Shown here piece by piece: positions 47,066 to 58,767 of a stretch of DNA of 64,000 nucleotides. Within the stretch, counting starts at the first letter, position 1; every line of letters begins with the position of its first letter. The notes under the pieces are model-generated. The model searched no databases. It was not told where the DNA came from and saw only the letters and a program-made list of their open reading frames with translations. This DNA is from Candidatus Microgenomates bacterium. Its GTDB lineage: Bacteria; Patescibacteriota; Microgenomatia; UBA8517; JACQJR01. Made by a program: the position numbers and the translations under genes. The stretch spans positions 2,557 to 66,556 of the forward strand of contig JACQJR010000002.1 in the NCBI GenBank assembly GCA_016204995.1, in the 5' to 3' direction.

Positions 47066-49060
<1,995 letters not shown>

Positions 49061-49807: not shown

Positions 49808-50572
49808 ATGGCGACAGATTTATACGAAAACAAAGCTAGTTCTGCTATTAGCTTGGAAAATATCTATAAAAAATTTGGCACAGTCCAAGCTTTAAATGGA
49901 GTTAATTTAACTGTTGAAAGAGGAACAGTTTTGGCTCTGTTAGGTCCTAATGGCGCTGGCAAAACCACTTTAATCCGCATCTTAACCACCTTACTAGAGG
50001 CAAGTAGCGGTGTAGCAAGAGTTGCTGGCTACGATGTCAGCAGGGAAACTAATAAAGTCCGGCAAATTATCGGTTTAACCGGCCAATACGCGGCCATTGA
50101 TGAAAATTTAACTGGTTTGGAAAATTTGGAATTGGTAGGCCACCTCTATCATTTAAACAAAACAGAAATTAATCAAAAAGCTAAGGATTTATTACAAAAA
50201 TTTGATTTGATAGAAGCTGCTAACCGACTGGCTAAAACTTATTCCGGAGGCATGCGGCGTCGGTTGGATTTGGCAGCCAGTTTAATTGGCAAACCGCAGA
50301 TTTTATTTTTGGACGAACCGACTACTGGCCTAGACCCGAAAGCCAGGCGGGAAATGTGGCAAACAATTAAAAATTTAGTGCAAGAGGGGATTACCATTCT
50401 TTTAACCACTCAATATATGGAAGAGGCCGAATATTTGGCAGATCATATCGCCATTATTAACCATGGCCAAATTATTGAACAAGGCACCTCTCGCGAGCTG
50501 AAGGCCAAACTAGGGTATTCTACACTAGACGAAGTCTTTTTAACTTTAACCGAACATGAACGCCCTTTCTGA
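49808..50572 (+). CDS. ABC transporter ATP-binding protein (DrrA/ABC-2 type)
   Basis: Walker A GPNGAGKTT, signature YSGGMRRRL, Walker B ILFLDEPT. Confidence 0.8.
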   Translation: MATDLYENKASSAISLENIYKKFGTVQALNGVNLTVERGTVLALLGPNGAGKTTLIRILTTLLEASSGVARVAGYDVSRETNKVRQIIGLTGQYAAIDENLTGLENLELVGHLYHLNKTEINQKAKDLLQKFDLIEAANRLAKTYSGGMRRRLDLAASLIGKPQILFLDEPTTGLDPKARREMWQTIKNLVQEGITILLTTQYMEEAEYLADHIAIINHGQIIEQGTSRELKAKLGYSTLDEVFLTLTEHERPF

Positions 50573-51311
50573 TATTTTAGTTTTAACGGAACGGAATTTG
50601 TTGCGCTACGCCCGAATTCCGCAGCTGTTGATTTTTTCCACCATCCAGCCGATTATGTTTGTGTTATTGTTTGCTTATGTTTTTGGGGGGGCCATCCGTA
50701 CTCCTGGCGGCAGTTATATTAATTATTTAATTCCCGGCATTATTGTCCAAAGCGTTATCTTTGGATCTATTCAAACGGGTATTGGTTTAGCTGATGATTT
50801 ATCACACGGTTTAATTGACCGTTTTCGCTCTTTGCCCATTACTCGCGTTGCAGTTTTAGCCGCCAGAACCTTAGCCGACACTTTCCGTAATATTTTTGTA
50901 GTGCTTTTGATGACTGGTGTAGGTATGATAATTGGTTTTCAACCCGAAGGAAGTATCTTAAATCTTTTGCTGGCTTTTATTCTCACTATTTTGTTTGGTT
51001 TTGCCTTTTCCTGGATTTCCGCTACCATCGGCTTGGTAATCCGCGAGGTGGAAACCGTCCAAGTAGCCGGATTTATCTGGATGTTCCCCCTGGTTTTTGC
51101 CAGTTCCATTTTCGTACCGATTGAGACCATGCCTGAATGGCTCGCGGCATTTGCCAAAGTCAACCCGATTACCGTGACGGTCAATGCTGTGAGAGCGCTG
51201 GTTTTGGGTGGCAAGGTGGAAAATAATATCAGCTACTCCCTGATTTGGACAGTAGTTATTTTGGCTATCTTTATTCCTCTGGCTGTTATCATCTATCGCC
51301 GCCGGACTTAA
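50556..51311 (+). CDS. ABC-2 type transporter permease
   Basis: Six predicted TM helices; overlaps the ATPase gene by 17 nt. Confidence 0.7.
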
Positions 51312-51361
51312 AACCACTTTCCTCTTTACAGCCTCAATCGTTATCTTGTATAATTTTTATA

Positions 51362-53371
51362 ATGCTGGAATTCTTTTCGCAGTATACTTTTCCGATTGTG
51401 TTGGGATCGGCCGGGCTGGCTGTTCTTTACGCCCTTTATTTAATTTCCCAAATTGTGAGAGAGCCTCGCGGCAATGAAACGATGATCAAAATTGCTGATG
51501 CTATTTACGAAGGCGCCAATGCTTATCTGAAAAGACAATATAGCGTCGTAGCAGGTATTGCGGCCTTGCTGGCGGTCATTATTACCGTTGTCCTTGGTTT
51601 ACATGTCGCGGTAGGTTTTTTATTAGGCGCGACTTTATCGGCTGCCGCCGGTATTATCGGCATGCATGTTTCAGTTAGAGCTAACGTCCGGGTGGCCCAA
51701 GCAGCTCAAAAGGGGATGGCCGCCGCTCTTAATCTCTCTTTTAAGGGTGGAGCAGTTACCGGTTTATTAGTAGCAGGATTAGCACTACTGGCTGTGACTG
51801 TGACTTTCGTCTTTGCCACCAATGTCCTTGGTTTACCCCAATCTCAAGTGATGACCACTTTAGTTGGATTAGGTTTTGGCGGTTCTTTAATTTCTGTTTT
51901 CGCCCGACTGGGCGGGGGAATTTTTACCAAAGCGGCTGATGTCGGCACTGACATGGTCGGCAAAATTGAAAAGGGAATTCCGGAAGATGATATCCGAAAT
52001 CCTGGAGTAATTGCTGATCAAGTGGGCGATAACGTCGGAGACTGCGCCGGTATGGCGGCTGATTTATTTGAAACTTATGTGGTGACGGCTGTTGCCACTA
52101 TGCTACTTGGCGTACTGGGAGGTCGGGGAGAAACGGTGATTACTTTTCCCTTACTGGTTGGTGCAGTAGCACTCCTAGCCACTATTATCGGTACTTTATT
52201 TGTCAAACTACCTAAATCCGGCAGTATCATGGCCGCTTTGTACCAGGGCTTAATTGCGACTGTTATTCTAACTGCCATTTTACTTTTTCCCATCACCAAA
52301 GCCTATTTTGGCCTCGGCATGTTCGTGGCTATTATCGTCGGCTTTGCCCTCTCTTTAATCATGGTAGCTATCACTGAATATTTCACCTCTAAAAAATTTA
52401 GCCAGGTTAGAAATCTGGCCCAGAGCGGCGAAACCGGCCATGCCACTAACATGATTGCCGGTCTGGCTTTGTCTTTACGTTCCACTTTTATGCCCATTTT
52501 AGCTATCGGCCTTGGTACCTTAATTGCTTATCAAGCCGGCGGACTTTATGGAATTGCTGTCGCCGCCGCCGCCATGTTGTCATTAACCGGTATGGTGGTC
52601 GCAATTGACGCCTTTGGCCCGATTACTGATAACGCCGGCGGTATTGCTGAAATGGCAAATTTACCCGAAAAAACTCGTAAAGTCACGGATGCCTTGGACG
52701 CAGTCGGCAACACTACCAAAGCTGTTACTAAAGCTTATGCTATTGCCTCGGCTGGCCTAGCCGCTCTAGTTTTATTTGCCTCTTATACTCAAGAATTAGG
52801 CGCAGGATCGGCTTTGAGTTTTTCTCTGGCCAGTCCCACAGTTTTAGTAGGATTATTTATTGGTGGAGCTTTGCCATATTTATTTGCCAGTTTTGCTATG
52901 GAATCAGTCGGCAAAGCTGCTGGCGCTGTCGCTACCGAAATCCGCCGCCAGTTTAAAGAAGATAAAGGAATTATGAAAGGTACCAGTAAGCCTGACTACC
53001 ACCGAGCTGTTGATTTGGTAACACGGGCAGCTTTAAGGGAGATGATTACGCCAGCACTTTTACCCATCCTCGTACCGATAATTGTGGCCTTTACTCTAGG
53101 TGCTCAAGCTTTGGGCGGATTATTGTTAGGTACGATTGTCACCGGACTATTTATTGGTTTATCTATGACTACGGGGGGAGCAGCCTGGGATAATGCTAAA
53201 AAATATATTGAAGATGGACATTTTGGCGGCAAAGGCAGTTTTGCCCATCAAGCCGCTGTGACTGGCGATACTGTCGGCGATCCCTATAAAGATACTGCCG
53301 GTCCGGCCATTAACCCGATGATTAAAGTAGCCAACATCGTCGCCCTGCTTTTAGCCCCGCTTTTGGCCTAA
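51362..53371 (+). CDS. hppA: Membrane-bound proton/sodium-translocating pyrophosphatase
   Basis: [18 protein letters not shown] and [18 protein letters not shown] motifs; start taken at internal Met MLEFFSQ, which removes the overlap with the upstream permease. Confidence 0.85.
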
Positions 53372-53382
53372 AACCCCTCTTT

Positions 53383-53753
53383 GTCATTGCGAGCGAAGCG
53401 AAGCAATCTCTACAATATAATGGATGGAGCAGAAACAATATTATACTTATATAGCTACCAACAAAGGTAATAATGTAATTTACACCGGTGTGACTAACAA
53501 TTTAATCCGCCGAATTTTTTGAACACAAAAATAAATTAGCTTCAGGTTTTACCTCCAAATATAACATCAATAAATTAGTTTATTATGAAGTTTTTAATGA
53601 TATTAATGAGGCTATAAAGAGAGAAAAGCAGATTAAAGGTGGATCAAGAGCTAAAAAATTAAAGTTAGTAGAGACAATAAATCCAGAATTTAAAGATCTA
53701 TATGAGGATATTGTTAGATGAGATTGCTTCGTCGCCACGCTCCTCGCAATGAC
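53383..53753. mobile_element. Miniature element: GIY-YIG nuclease gene bounded by imperfect terminal inverted repeats
   Basis: Left end GTCATTGCGAGCGAAGCGAAGCAATC (53383-53408); right end GATTGCTTCGTCGCCACGCTCCTCGCAATGAC (53721-53753), whose reverse complement is GTCATTGCGAG ... GAAGCAATC. Sits in the hppA-gyrA spacer. Confidence 0.5.
53424..53720 (+). pseudogene. Small GIY-YIG nuclease (UPF0213-like) with a +1 frameshift in a T6 run
   Basis: MEQKQYYTYIATNKGNNVIYTGVTNNLIRRIF, then a frame change, then EHKNKLASGFTSKYNINKLVYYEVFNDINEAIKREKQIKGGSRAKKLKL... The GIY..YIG, R and E-x-KQIK-W/GSRAKK motifs are intact; removing one T at 53515-53520 fuses the frames. Confidence 0.6.
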
Positions 53754-53824
53754 ATAGTATGGGTAAGTTTCCCCCAAACTTGTCCTTGATTGTTTAGCTT
53801 CATTTCAAGTATAATTAAATAATT

Positions 53825-56434
53825 ATGCCCGATCAAAATATTGGCAAAATTCAGCCGATAGAAATCACTAAAGAGCTTCAGAAATCTTACCTTGATTATG
53901 CCATGTCAGTGATCGTGGCCCGCGCACTTCCTGATGTTAAAGACGGCCTCAAACCGGTTCACCGCCGAATTTTATATGCCATGTACCGGATGGGTTTGCG
54001 GCCTGGTGGAGCTTTTACCAAATCGGCCAAAGTAGTCGGAGAAGTCTTGGGTAAATACCATCCCCACGGCGACATGCCGGTTTACGATGCACTAGTCCGT
54101 TTGGCTCAAGATTTTTCCATGCGCTATCCCTTGGTAGATGGGCAGGGAAATTTTGGTTCAGTGGACGGCGATCCGCCGGCGGCTATGCGTTACACCGAAG
54201 TTAGGTTGCCACAAATTGCCTTGGAAATGCTGGCTGATTTAGACAGCGATACCCTGGAATGGACGGAAAATTTTGACGCCACTCTCAAAGAACCGGTTTT
54301 TTTGCCGGCCAAATTACCAAATTTGCTCTTGATGGGCGCTGACGGCATTGCTGTGGGTATGGCCACTAAAATCCCACCGCATAATTTAAGAGAAATCGCC
54401 GCGGCCATTACCATTACTATTAATAAAGGAGCTATTACGCCTCTCGCCGACGGCCAGGAATCAGGCTCCGAATTTGCCATTAAAAAAATTGAGTTGGAAG
54501 TCAGTCAAGGCAAAACTACCACACCCATCACTGAAATGACAGTACCTCATTTTAGTTTTGATTCTGATGTCACTACTGAAGAATTAGTAGCTTTGATGCC
54601 TGGTCCGGATTTTCCCACTGGCGGGGCAATTTATGATGCAAAATCCTTAGTGGAAATCTACGCCACCGGCCGGGGTAAAATTATCGTCCGGGGAATTGCC
54701 AAAATTGAAGAAGGGGGTAAGGGCAAAACCAAAATCACCATCACCGAAATTCCTTATCAAGTTAATAAATCGCAACTGGTAGCTCGAATTGCCCAACTGG
54801 CCCGCGATAAAAAAATTGTTGGTATTTCCGATTTGCGCGATGAATCGGACAGAACCGGCATGTCCGTAGTGATTGAACTGAAAAAAGACGCTAAACCCAA
54901 AGCAGTTTTAAATAATCTTTACAAGCACACGGCTTTACAAAGCAGTTTTCCGGCCAACTTTGTGGCTTTGGTAGACGGCGTACCGCATACTTTAACCTTA
55001 AAACGGATTTTAACTCAATATATTGATCATAGACAACAAGTCGTCGTCCGGCGGACAGTTTTTGAACTGCGCGAGAGCCGCCGCCGGGCCCATATTTTAG
55101 ATGGTTTAAAAATTGCCCTGGACAATTTGGATGCTGTCATTGAAACCATCCGCCGGGCAGCCGATGCCGATGAAGCCAAAAGTAAGCTAATGAGTAAGTT
55201 TGGCTTGTCAGAACTACAAACTATTGCTATTTTAGATATGCAGTTACGTCGTTTGGCCAGACTTGAGCGAGAGAAAATTGAAGCCGAATGGAAAGAGTTG
55301 CAAGCTAAAATTAAAGACCTGGAAGGAATTTTAACTACGCCGAAGCGAATTTTAGAAATTATCCAAACTGAACTGAAAGAATTAACAGCCAAATACGGCG
55401 ATGAACGCCGCACCAAAATTTATCAAACTAAACTAGGCGAATTTTCCCAGGAAGATTTAGTAGCAAAAGAAGAAACTTTAATCACTTTAACTTCTGGCGG
55501 CTATATTAAACGAGTGCCTTTGGCAACTTACAGGCAGCAGGCCCGCGGAGGCAAAGGAGTCTTAGGTATGTCAGATAAAAAAGAAGATGAGATCGTTCAT
55601 TTAACTAGCGCTTCTACTCATGACCAGCTTTTGGCTTTTACTGATCGCGGCCGGGTTTTTGCCACACCGGTTTGGGAAATTCCTGAAACCAGCCGTTTAG
55701 CCCGCGGCCAAGCTTTAGTTAATCTAATTAATATTGAACAAGGCGAAGAAATTCAAACGATTTTACCCATGACTAAAGAGGGCGGACATAAATTCTTACT
55801 GATGGCGACTCAAAAAGGAGTCATTAAGAAAACTGCCCTGACGCAATTTGCCAATATCAGAAGCCGCGGTATCACTGCTATCAAATTAGAAAAGGGTGAT
55901 AAATTGGTCTGGGTCAAACCTACCCTCGGTACTGATCATGTTTTATTGGTGACTCAAAAAGGTAAAGCTATTAAATTTCGGGAAGAAAATGTGCGATCCA
56001 CTGGCCGCGACACCATGGGAGTCCGAGGTATTAGGTTATCAACCGGCGATACATTGGTAGGCATGGAGGTAATTGCCAGCCAGGACAGCAGCCAAGTTGA
56101 CGGTAGAAAAAAACCATTTACCGACGTTTTGGTCGTTACTGAACACGGTATCGGCAAAAGAACGCCGATTAAATTGTTTACTGTTCAAGGCCGCGGCGGC
56201 GTCGGTATTAAACTCGCCAATATTAACAGCAAAACGGGTAGTATTGTCTCCGCTTTTTTTGTCACCGAAGACATTGACCAAATCGTCATCACCTCCCGCG
56301 GCAACCAAGTTATCAAAATGCCCCTGCGCAACGTGCCGGTTTTGGGCCGCAATACTCAAGGAGTCATTCTAATGCGATTTGCCGATAAAGGGGATACGGT
56401 AGCGGCCGTGGCCACTCTGGAAAAAGAAGTTTAA
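53825..56434 (+). CDS. gyrA: DNA gyrase subunit A
   Basis: [28 protein letters not shown], catalytic Tyr region ([10 protein letters not shown]) and C-terminal beta-pinwheel repeats. Confidence 0.9.
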
Positions 56435-57082: not shown

Positions 57083-57135
57083 ATCAATCCAGCCTCAATA
57101 ACACAAGGGGGAATTATTAACGAAAGTAACCTTCC

Positions 57136-57172
57136 GACCTACGAGGTCGTACGCACGACACCTCGTAGGTGT
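57136..57172. repeat. REP-like hairpin (family 2) flanking RAYT-2
   Basis: GACCTACGAGGTCGtacgcacgaCACCTCGTAGGTG with an 11-bp perfect stem. Confidence 0.6.
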
Positions 57173-57176
57173 AAAT

Positions 57177-57779
57177 CTAACCATCAAAAGTTAGATGCTC
57201 TATAAATGGATCTTTCTGGAATTTTATATTTGCTTTAACAAACTCTCTATAATCATTCACTGGATCTTTTGACGGAAAATATTCTAGAATTACCTCTTTA
57301 TTAACCAATTCATCTTTTTTATTCAATAAATAAGCTGCCAGCGAAGACCATTGATAGTTTAGAAGTTTCTCAAAAACATCACCTCCTAGATAAAGAAGCT
57401 CAACTGGATTTAAATGAATGTATCTAGAAAGATGGATTAGGTATTCATCCTTTTCCACCCTTTTAGCTTTAAATCGCCCCTGGAATAGTGAACCAACCAA
57501 ATCATACTTAACATTTATATATCTGGAATGGCTATTACAAATATCTGACATGAATCTACTTATTGAGTTATCAATTATTTGCTTAACTAGAAAATGAATA
57601 TGGTTTGGCATTAAGCAGTAAGTTAAAATTTCTAGAGGGTATTTCTTCTTATATTCAACTACTTTTTCTAAAAACCTTTCGTAATCTCTATAGTGAAAGA
57701 AGATTGACTGCTTTCTATTTCCTCGGTTATAAATGTGGTAATAACCTCCCGTCTCAAAATACCTAGGAGAAGTAGCCAT
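57177..57779 (-). CDS. REP-associated tyrosine transposase (RAYT, IS200-like), second copy
   Basis: MATSPRYFETGGYYHIYNRG ... ILTYCLMPNHIHFLV (HUH) ... LSRYIHLNPV (Tyr). Start placed at the internal Met; the longer ORF would read through the REP hairpin. Confidence 0.7.
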   Translation of the reverse strand: MATSPRYFETGGYYHIYNRGNRKQSIFFHYRDYERFLEKVVEYKKKYPLEILTYCLMPNHIHFLVKQIIDNSISRFMSDICNSHSRYINVKYDLVGSLFQGRFKAKRVEKDEYLIHLSRYIHLNPVELLYLGGDVFEKLLNYQWSSLAAYLLNKKDELVNKEVILEYFPSKDPVNDYREFVKANIKFQKDPFIEHLTFDG

Positions 57780-57792
57780 TATCTTAAGTTTA

Positions 57793-57828
57793 GACCTACG
57801 AGGTGGCAAATTCAACACCTCGTAGGTC
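57793..57828. repeat. REP-like hairpin (family 2), second copy
   Basis: GACCTACGAGGTGgcaaattcaaCACCTCGTAGGTC with a 13-bp perfect stem, between RAYT-2 and xerC. Confidence 0.6.
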
Positions 57829-57837
57829 GGTGATATT

Positions 57838-58767
57838 TTATTTATTTCCTCTATGAAAGGCTTCGTGAACTTCACGCAGTTGTTTATTTGTCACATGGGT
57901 GTAAATTTGGGTGGTCGCAATATTTTTGTGTCCCAACATTTCTTGCACACTCCTTAAATCAGCCCCAGCCATCAGTAAATCTGTGGCAAAAGAATGACGC
58001 ATGACGTGAGGCGTAACTTCTACCGGTAATTTTATTTTATGGCTGTATTTTTTAATCATCCGTTGGATTGAGCGGGGAGTGAGGCGCATTTTTTCATCCT
58101 CGGCTACCACATCAGTTTTACCGGTCATGCTGATAAAAAGCGGTTTGTAATTATCTTCTCTAACAGCTAAATAATCACGGATATATTCGGCGGCCCGGCG
58201 GGAAACAAAAACCACCCGCGGCTTTCGGCCTTTACCGATAATGCCAAACTCCCGATGATCCAGATCAATTTTATCGCGATCTAAACTAACCAACTCTGAT
58301 ACCCGCAGGCCGGTAGAAAAAAGTAATTCTAAAATGGCTTTATCGCGCTTGCCGCGGGGTGTGGATAAAGTAGGAGCGGCCAGCATCCTTTCCACCTGTT
58401 CACCATTTAAAAAAGTAGGGGAGGATCCTTCGGCTTTGGGTAAATCCAGTTTTTCCGGCCCAATGACCTCATAATCATTTTTGCGCAAATATTTTAAAAA
58501 GGCCCGCAGAGCAATAATATGGTAACTTTGGGTCTTCAAAGAAAGGGTTGCGCCACCAATATCTAAGCGAGATAGGTAAACACGGTACTTACGGATAGTT
58601 TCGGCAGTAATAGCCGATAAACTGGGATTTTTAACTTCTTTACTTAACCAATTTTCAAATCTGCGCAGATAATGATTATAGTTGCGAATGGTCAAGGGAG
58701 AAACATTCTTTTCCACTTCCAGATATTCTAAAAATTGACTAATAAAACCAGCTAAACTCTCCAGCAT
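57838..58767 (-). CDS. xerC: Tyrosine site-specific recombinase XerC/XerD family
   Basis: N-terminal core-binding domain (FLEYLEVEKNVSPLTIRNY) and catalytic R..HxxR..Y region (HVMRHSFATDLL ... GHKNIATTQIYTHV). Confidence 0.8.
   Translation of the reverse strand: MLESLAGFISQFLEYLEVEKNVSPLTIRNYNHYLRRFENWLSKEVKNPSLSAITAETIRKYRVYLSRLDIGGATLSLKTQSYHIIALRAFLKYLRKNDYEVIGPEKLDLPKAEGSSPTFLNGEQVERMLAAPTLSTPRGKRDKAILELLFSTGLRVSELVSLDRDKIDLDHREFGIIGKGRKPRVVFVSRRAAEYIRDYLAVREDNYKPLFISMTGKTDVVAEDEKMRLTPRSIQRMIKKYSHKIKLPVEVTPHVMRHSFATDLLMAGADLRSVQEMLGHKNIATTQIYTHVTNKQLREVHEAFHRGNK

Follow-up and report, generated by a model that had tools for sequence, protein, structure and literature searches.

Ssn proteins are single-domain GIY-YIG nucleases of about 94 amino acids (Chenal et al., 2025, Nat Commun 16:2388, PMC11893778). 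The gene, ssnA (CDD cd10448), is flanked in many phyla by the repeat NTS, which reads CGTCATTCCCGCGMAVGCGGGAATCYRG in Neisseria, or by Ssn-related motifs (SRM), and 42% of the ssnA homologues have repeats on both sides. SsnA binds the hairpin solely as single-stranded DNA (ssDNA) and on the tagged strand ((C/T)GTC-stem-loop-stem), cuts a few nucleotides 5′ of the (C/T)GTC tag, and leaves double-stranded DNA (dsDNA), RNA and the reverse strand untouched. The mutants Y6A, Y17A and E64A still bind and have lost cutting. In Neisseria, SsnA restricts the recombination of incoming transforming ssDNA that contains NTS and lowers transformation by such DNA. NTS-ssnA-NTS looks like an insertion sequence (IS), and a domesticated element was suggested in analogy to RAYT and the repetitive extragenic palindromes (REP); Patescibacteria and Microgenomates are not mentioned (Chenal et al., 2025). 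Here we describe a locus of this kind from a Candidatus Microgenomates bacterium. The window, that is, the whole analyzed stretch of 64,000 nucleotides (contig JACQJR010000002.1, positions 2,557 to 66,556), contains in the spacer between hppA and gyrA (53383-53753) an open reading frame (ORF) for a GIY-YIG protein of 98 amino acids, bracketed by two inverted copies of a repeat with the ends GTCATTGCGAG and GAAGCAATCTC. We consider it very likely that 53382-53754 is an SRM-ssn-SRM module, consisting of an Ssn-family gene and inverted copies of its cognate DNA hairpin repeat. The NTS-ssnA-NTS kind was already described in 2025, and the locus is a further example of this known architecture.

A second group of related repeats is the CGTC/TGTC-tagged REP superfamily, which has an unpaired tag, stems starting with AT and mostly head-to-head dimers; the CGTC-tagged repeats “apparently lack a dedicated transposase” (Di Nocera et al., 2013, PMC3733652). 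Both ends of the window module read TGTC-AT and are followed by a short 3′ tail, and frequent head-to-head dimers and an occurrence in many phyla are likewise common to both groups. The published CGTC-tagged REPs have stems of 8-9 bp and loops of 4-5 nt, whereas the stem in the window is interrupted.

The gene in the window is disrupted by one additional T. Deletion of this T yields a 98 amino acid protein that matches the Pfam GIY-YIG profile (PF01541, E 2.9e-16, residues 5-79) and contains no other domain according to the Pfam and NCBIfam profiles. Residues Y9, Y20, R30, H34 and E67 are invariant in the alignment with its homologues. At least 8000 candidate relatives were scored, all with E ≤ 1e-3; the best among them is 82% identical, and clusters of homologues at 90% identity are nearly all singletons. 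The link to SsnA was made via a proxy. Metagenome contigs were scanned for the exact Neisseria NTS (CGTCATTCCCGCGNANGCGGGAATC), and the 120 loci obtained were searched with a hidden Markov model built from relatives of the window protein. In three of these loci a GIY-YIG gene adjoins the NTS and matches over its full length (E 1e-33 to 1e-35). One of them (L218) has an NTS on the plus strand (1042-1066), a 94 amino acid ORF and an NTS on the minus strand (1381-1405); its residues Y6, Y17 and E64 correspond to those mutated in SsnA (Chenal et al., 2025). The window protein aligns with this ORF without gaps over 92 of the 94 residues (41% identity, E 5e-32), with Y9, Y20 and E67 opposite Y6, Y17 and E64. 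For SsnA itself, the threshold of homology was set at E < 1e-10 with more than 75% of its length covered (Chenal et al., 2025). The window protein resembles SsnA of N. meningitidis in being a single-domain GIY-YIG protein of about 94-98 amino acids with equally spaced catalytic Tyr, Tyr and Glu.

Other GIY-YIG families were considered and rejected. UPF0213/YhbQ and SLX1-like proteins, which we take to be a separate CDD sub-family, are also small stand-alone GIY-YIG proteins of about 100 amino acids, but the similarity is weak (PDB 1zg2, BH0048, E 6.4e-4). A group I intron homing endonuclease was discarded at 17.3 bits for the NCBIfam profile grpIintron_endo (TIGR01453), which has a cut-off of 56. 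With GIY-YIG homing endonucleases of the I-TevI type the window element shares the catalytic domain, a small selfish-looking gene and a patchy distribution. These enzymes, however, combine it with a distinct DNA-binding domain, cleave dsDNA in one particular target gene and are located in introns or beside this target, whereas the window element is intergenic, occurs in varied contexts and codes for a single domain.

The window repeats have an outer stem of 5 bp (ATTGC/GCAAT), which encloses a G-A internal loop and an inner mini-hairpin of the GNA type, and are members of a divergent sub-class. The left repeat is composed of the tag TGTC, the outer stem, a GA/GAA internal loop, the mini-hairpin GCGAAGC and the tail CTC; the right one, read on the minus strand, is TGTC-ATTGC-GA-G-GA-GCGTGGC-GA-C-GAA-GCAAT-CTC. 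Long-form repeats such as the latter have an extra G...C pair bracketed by GA/GA. Across the copies the fold comprises the 5-bp outer stem, the GA/GAA internal loop and an inner stem of 2-8 bp with a loop of mostly 3 nt, and the variable middle is a small hairpin (GCGNAGC, GCCGAAGGC, GGGCTTGCCC, GGCTCCGAAGGAGCC). When matches were chosen on the unpaired anchors alone, the outer stem was fully complementary over 5 bp in 133 of 169, compared to 48.7 expected with permuted partners, and nine different outer-stem sequences were found. The terminal stem of the inner segment has a mean of 2.05 bp vs. 0.40 in shuffles. Loci without ATTGC have compensatory outer stems, i.e., ATTCT/AGAAT, ATCCT/AGGAT, ATGCT/AGCAT, GTCCT/AGGAC and ACCCT/AGGGT. 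The window repeats share with the SsnA system the inverted hairpins, the outward (C/T)GTC tag, a stem starting with AT and a C after the stem; they differ from it in the 5-bp outer stem, the G-A internal loop and the nested mini-hairpin, since the SsnA system has a perfect 8-bp stem. Because members of the Ssn family cut 5′ of the tag, the two cuts would fall on opposite strands just outside the unit: at the left repeat the top strand would be cut just left of 53382, in the gap of 11 nt after the hppA stop codon, and at the right repeat the bottom strand just right of 53754.

The association of gene and repeat was analyzed in a set of homologues obtained by a scan of one genome per species (80 loci, 54-74% identity). 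These loci span more than 12 phyla, including Patescibacteria, Cyanobacteria, Chloroflexota, Bacteroidota, Gammaproteobacteria, Omnitrophota, Nitrospirota, Elusimicrobiota, Firmicutes and others. With a strict sequence definition, a repeat is present upstream of the gene in 29 loci, downstream in 32 and on both sides in 21. A definition by structure only (TC-N5-GA-...-GA(A)-N5′, orientation required) detects upstream repeats on the plus strand in 43 loci, downstream repeats on the minus strand in 48 and both in 27; altogether 337 structure-defined repeats were found in the 80 loci vs. 16 in shuffled DNA. A geometry that recurs in 27-48 of 80 homologue loci, with this excess of repeats, is far beyond chance.

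Repeat class and protein clade are coupled. The nearest protein neighbor shares the repeat class in 60 of 63 cases, a value that none of 2000 permutations reached. One column tells the classes apart, residue G73 of the window protein (KQIKGGSR): Gly occupies it in 95% of the ATTGC class, Trp in 100% of the ATYCT class; the three proteins beside canonical NTS (L218, L237 and L298) have Trp at this KQIKG(G/W)SR position. Both classes are found within the same phyla while the class tracks the clade, which indicates that protein and repeat moved between lineages together. A wide, patchy distribution over phyla and an own repeat variant for each protein clade are also features of the SsnA/NTS system. 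The Gly/Trp column is a candidate specificity determinant; it may instead reflect one ancient split and not repeated co-evolution. In the ATYCT class (L167, L179, L185, L197 and others) the upstream stem often reads ATTCT and the downstream stem ATCCT; a single position distinguishes the two stems and would become a T-G wobble on pairing of the copies with each other. The window likewise pairs a short-form with a long-form repeat. Heterodimers seem to be the rule, as noted for the CGTC families (Di Nocera et al., 2013).

Alignment of the window module with its four closest homologue modules showed that the five copies lie in five different gene contexts with unrelated flanks. The copies are approximately 70-80% alike and all have the TGTC tag; similarity starts exactly at TGTCATTGCGA (53382) and stops exactly at CGCAATGACA (53754). 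The Logan contig L201 begins exactly at 53383. Relatives were inspected for empty sites. In the closest sampled relative (GyrA 75% identical) the order is gyrB, a small ORF, hppA and gyrA, and the hppA-gyrA spacer of 145 nt contains neither gene nor repeat, being too diverged for a junction at base level. The second case is an orthologous site in a conserved block of genes in Daviesbacteria (NrdR-RNR-...-CobA-Lon; RNR, ribonucleotide reductase), where one lineage (L205) has the module. Its relatives (RNR 84% identical) have no module and only 18 nt between RNR and the next gene (L350) or 10 nt between RNR and CobA (L351). The next spacer of L205 carries a solo repeat that is identical (28/28) to the module's own and absent from the relative. 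The GC content of the ssn ORF is 27.8% and that of the element 32%; the window as a whole has 41.4%, and hppA and gyrA have 45-47%. Exact homology ends, empty sites in relatives and a GC content below that of the neighbors indicate that SRM-ssn-SRM is a discrete, horizontally acquired unit; the donor would be a lower-GC Microgenomates or Daviesbacteria-like organism.

These data can be compared with a sequence-only reading made earlier of the same DNA. It had placed a GIY-YIG ORF of about 97 amino acids exactly between inverted repeats with shared start and end words in the spacer of hppA and gyrA, had noted a +1 frameshift in a run of six T (T6), and had taken the element for a repeat-bounded unit that is not a housekeeping gene. 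All of this is borne out, with 98 amino acids for the repaired protein.

Repeats of this sub-class are widespread outside the modules. An exact scan with CATTGCGAG-N(3-15)-GAAGCAATC found at least 180 copies in at least 120 viral contigs of IMG/VR, and almost none of these copies adjoins a GIY-YIG gene. They occur singly, in arrays, or as inverted pairs separated by 20-30 bp; in these pairs the GTC tags point outward, just as they do on the two sides of the window gene. A full-text literature search with the repeat sequence itself gave no relevant match. An Ssn homologue was found in six viral contigs only, while the ATTGC-class repeat is common in viral contigs. In L013 (3339-12742), six copies lie on the same strand, several of them just 5′ of a ribosome binding site and ATG; L042 (2697-2818) has four tandem copies with a period of 33 nt, and L028 (4600-4670) is another viral contig that has repeat copies without ssn.

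Several points weigh against assigning the locus to the Ssn system. The relationship to SsnA rests on a proxy protein located between exact NTS and not on SsnA (CAX49033.1) itself. The published SRM pattern HGTCWYN(0-2)YYVSBRHN(0-5)WNVSBRGN(0-2)RNCYNB matches nothing in the window, although the NTS positive control is matched, and it matches a gene-adjacent repeat in only one of the 80 closest homologue loci; it is thus their architecture and tag, and not the published definition, that make the window repeats SRM-like. In a nearest-neighbor calculation both window repeats have weak DNA folding energies (−2.7 and −3.2 kcal/mol, z approximately 0.5-0.7). Thermodynamic stability was dropped as an argument since these ssDNA folding energies are not significant, and the hairpin thus rests on covariation. 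That the nuclease recognizes this sub-class is a proposal drawn from the biochemistry of family members. The 64-kb window contains only the two flanking repeats and no wider repeat population. Further differences to the SsnA system are the Patescibacteria/Microgenomates host and the frameshift in the gene.

Frame 1 of the gene covers 53424-53519 (MEQKQYYTYIATNKGNNVIYTGVTNNLIRRIF) and ends with a TGA at 53520-53522, directly after the T6 run. The +1 frame continues from 53521 (EHKNK...KREKQIKGGSRAKK...EDIVR) to the stop codon of the gene. A DNA alignment with four intact homologues showed that the extra T is unique to the window copy. Because of this insertion the copy is most likely a pseudogene by now, with two cognate hairpins and no other repeats nearby. 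The gene could still be expressed and the nuclease functional if the T6 run arose through a homopolymer error in sequencing or assembly, or if the ribosome makes a +1 slip of the prfB type at UUU-UGA, where the tRNA (here tRNA-Phe) re-pairs one base further on at the stop codon. Apart from the single base, neither half of the ORF is damaged, and their match to the family profile runs from one end to the other (E 2e-12 and 8e-35), and the repaired protein is still 82% identical to its best homologue. At 53513-53523 an in-frame UGA follows a Phe codon and a U is free for +1 re-pairing, which is formally the layout of a prfB site, and a slip on A-UUU-UUU-GA would yield exactly the consensus ...RRIFEHK.... 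Expression in either way is nevertheless improbable. The T6 run is also present in another assembly of this organism (Logan contig L201), which may derive from the same reads, and a Shine-Dalgarno-like stimulator is not present 5′ of the frameshift site. The four close homologues have neither the slippery run nor the stop codon in this region, so that a programmed shift is not conserved and the site is probably just an insertion mutation.

Alternative explanations were also weighed for the repeats and for the module as a whole. A fortuitous palindrome beside a resident small GIY-YIG gene would fit the counts in the window, where each end word (an 11-mer and a 9-mer) occurs only twice, which is not significant alone (13 of 100 shuffles reach two). 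It is refuted by the geometry recurring in dozens of homologue loci across phyla, by the exact unit boundaries and empty sites, and by the covariation of repeat class and protein clade, and it retains practically no probability; relatives with the gene and without inverted ends, which the sequence-only reading had named as the sign of such a resident gene, were not what we found. The repeats could also act in RNA, as terminator, stabilizer or regulator, with the inverted layout pairing the ends of the mRNA. The upstream repeat overlaps a promoter-like site, the downstream repeat shares 2 nt with the ssn stop codon, and the two copies are complementary, so that a long stem is possible in the transcript. 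SsnA, however, does not bind RNA (Chenal et al., 2025), and repeats are found in both orientations relative to genes. No relevant Rfam family was detected in the window region with a permissive E-value threshold or in 12 related loci at the gathering threshold. The conserved features are the orientation tag, the G-A mismatches and GNA triloops such as GCGAAGC, a known DNA mini-hairpin and not a typical stable RNA tetraloop. We therefore regard a role in RNA as very unlikely.

Next to the reading as a nuclease gene with its cognate hairpins stands that of an autonomous mobile element, in which the GIY-YIG protein would be a transposase or homing nuclease, cutting at both repeats and relocating or copying the 372-bp unit. 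Its non-autonomous derivatives would then be the solo repeats and the inverted pairs, and the module would be the GIY-YIG counterpart of IS200/IS605 or RAYT/REPIN. This would explain the IS-like architecture, the exact ends in five contexts, the filled and empty sites and the low GC content, and it agrees with the joint travel of protein clade and repeat class across phyla. The break of the Logan contig falls precisely on the left end, which would be expected if this sequence had several left contexts in the sample; the solo repeat of L205 is identical to that of the module and absent from the relative, and inverted repeat pairs without a gene are common. The hypothesis of a mobile element was also raised by Chenal et al. 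(2025), and the CGTC-tagged REPs have no known dedicated enzyme (Di Nocera et al., 2013). Against it stand the single nuclease domain with no known joining activity and the published activity, which is ssDNA cleavage only (Chenal et al., 2025). The module contains no transposase with strand-transfer chemistry and no additional DNA-binding domain, and no second copy is present in the window, where the single one is frameshifted. A search for identical copies in differing contexts with one protein (P0041) found it on 24 contigs, always with the same neighbors, and the near absence of larger clusters at 90% identity means that no recent bursts of the gene are visible. Direct repeats were found neither around 27 full modules and the window copy nor at the filled/empty site of Daviesbacteria; this lack of a target-site duplication is weak evidence because IS200/IS605 elements do not have one either. 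We consider autonomous mobility possible and on balance unlikely. The autonomous or homing-type mobility favored by the sequence-only reading is thus not supported. The terminal inverted repeats on which it relied are real, and are better read as the ssDNA hairpin sites of the nuclease, as SRM and NTS are (Chenal et al., 2025); the repeats are also abundant without the gene.

The likeness to REPIN-RAYT and IS200/IS605 is one of architecture only. These systems also have a single-copy nuclease gene between inverted hairpins that are dispersed as singles and dimers as well, and they also use recognition of ssDNA hairpins with a conserved unpaired tag beside the foot of the stem. Their HUH Y1 tyrosine transposase (Y1_Tnp), however, forms covalent intermediates and rejoins DNA, whereas the window enzyme belongs to the hydrolytic GIY-YIG nucleases, which have no known joining step, and its tag is TGTC, not GTAG. 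With one gene that is retained mostly by vertical descent and with hairpins that are dispersed, the pattern is closer to RAYT/REPIN than to an active IS. A speculative extension, to which we give only a low chance, is a self-mobilizing element whose GIY-YIG nuclease acting on ssDNA hairpins would be the missing “dedicated enzyme” of the CGTC/TGTC-tagged REPs. Its derivatives would include the copies on phage contigs, and the Gly/Trp residue would set the stem that is recognized.

Features of the ssn locus and its neighbors in the window.
Feature	Position	Strand	Remark
Left hairpin repeat (SRM-like, short form)	53382..53410	+	53383-53410 reads GTCATTGCGAGCGAAGCGAAGCAATCTC; homology among copies begins here
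Right hairpin repeat (SRM-like, long form)	53720..53754	−	53720-53753 reads GTCATTGCGAGGAGCGTGGCGACGAAGCAATCTC; homology among copies stops here
ssn-type GIY-YIG nuclease gene, disrupted	53424..53721	+	ATG at 53424; stop 53719-53721
Promoter-like site TTGCGA-18 nt-TACAAT	53387..53416	+	Overlaps left repeat; 9/12 consensus matches, no proof of function
T6 homopolymer with single-base insertion	53515..53520	+	Intact homologues have ≤5 T at the same place
Terminator-like hairpin with T-rich tail	53761..53795	+	Just outside the unit, 5′ of the gyrA promoter-like site 53786-53815
H+-PPase gene (hppA)	51245-53371		Neighbor of ssn module
gyrA	53825-56434		Neighbor of ssn module
gyrB	47069-49060		

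A −10-like box is located 3′ of the upstream repeat in many homologue loci. From the promoter-like site we infer that the left repeat may double as promoter; the transcript would then start at about the ATG and the mRNA would be leaderless. The terminator-like hairpin is probably context and not part of the SRM-ssn-SRM unit.

Between gyrB and gyrA this genome has, in addition to hppA and the ssn module, a two-gene ABC transporter (49808-51311) and an ORF of 208 amino acids whose family is unknown. In the closest relative (L202, 1-3855) only gyrB, an 83 amino acid ORF, hppA and gyrA are present. In L203, a more distant relative, hppA and gyrA are separated by three small, unrelated ORFs. Insertions seem to accumulate between gyrB and gyrA.

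On the other side of gyrA, a Y1_Tnp gene (IS200-like/RAYT-like; PF01797, E 1.7e-15) is encoded on the minus strand at 57177-57779, or up to 57875 with a GTG start codon. It is bracketed by palindromes at 57134-57172 and 57793-57830, both built from ACCTCGTAGGT, which contains GTAG. This sequence occurs as four half-sites and nowhere else in the window, a number reached in none of 100 shuffles. The region 57134-57875 looks like a REP-RAYT module, 3.4 kb from the ssn module, and is abutted by a XerC-like integrase gene (57838-58767). Thus, gyrA has a TGTC-tagged repeat/GIY-YIG module on one side and a GTAG-tagged repeat/Y1 module on the other.

Some of the Daviesbacteria relatives have a small gene for a membrane protein (CBU_0592-like) between RNR and CobA, and others lack it (L350, 5140-5430, vs. 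L351, 5140-5150). In L350, TGTGTTAA(AATGAGCC) at the RNR end recurs just before CobA; the inserted block is thus flanked by a short direct repeat. Many class II ribonucleotide reductase homologues of Daviesbacteria (P0250, P0257, P0263, P0273, P0274 and others) are 1200-1350 amino acids long vs. about 880. The longer ones have the extra domains PF14528, PF14890 and PF05204, which are absent from those of about 880 amino acids. These are presumably intein/homing-endonuclease domains and would point to intein insertions in the RNR gene.

For this genome the ssn copy is a minor, probably dead passenger. To our knowledge, Ssn nucleases are the only site-specific nucleases described that act solely on ssDNA, each with its own hairpin site, and the locus adds a host from the Candidate Phyla Radiation to this family. 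Its interrupted-stem sub-class is missed by the published pattern, so that pattern-based surveys undercount the system. The comparison at base level provides evidence that the gene and the two hairpins travel as one unit, which bears on how repeats and genes have spread. The Gly/Trp switch, which tracks the stem sequence, is a candidate specificity residue and would be useful if Ssn enzymes become tools for ssDNA.

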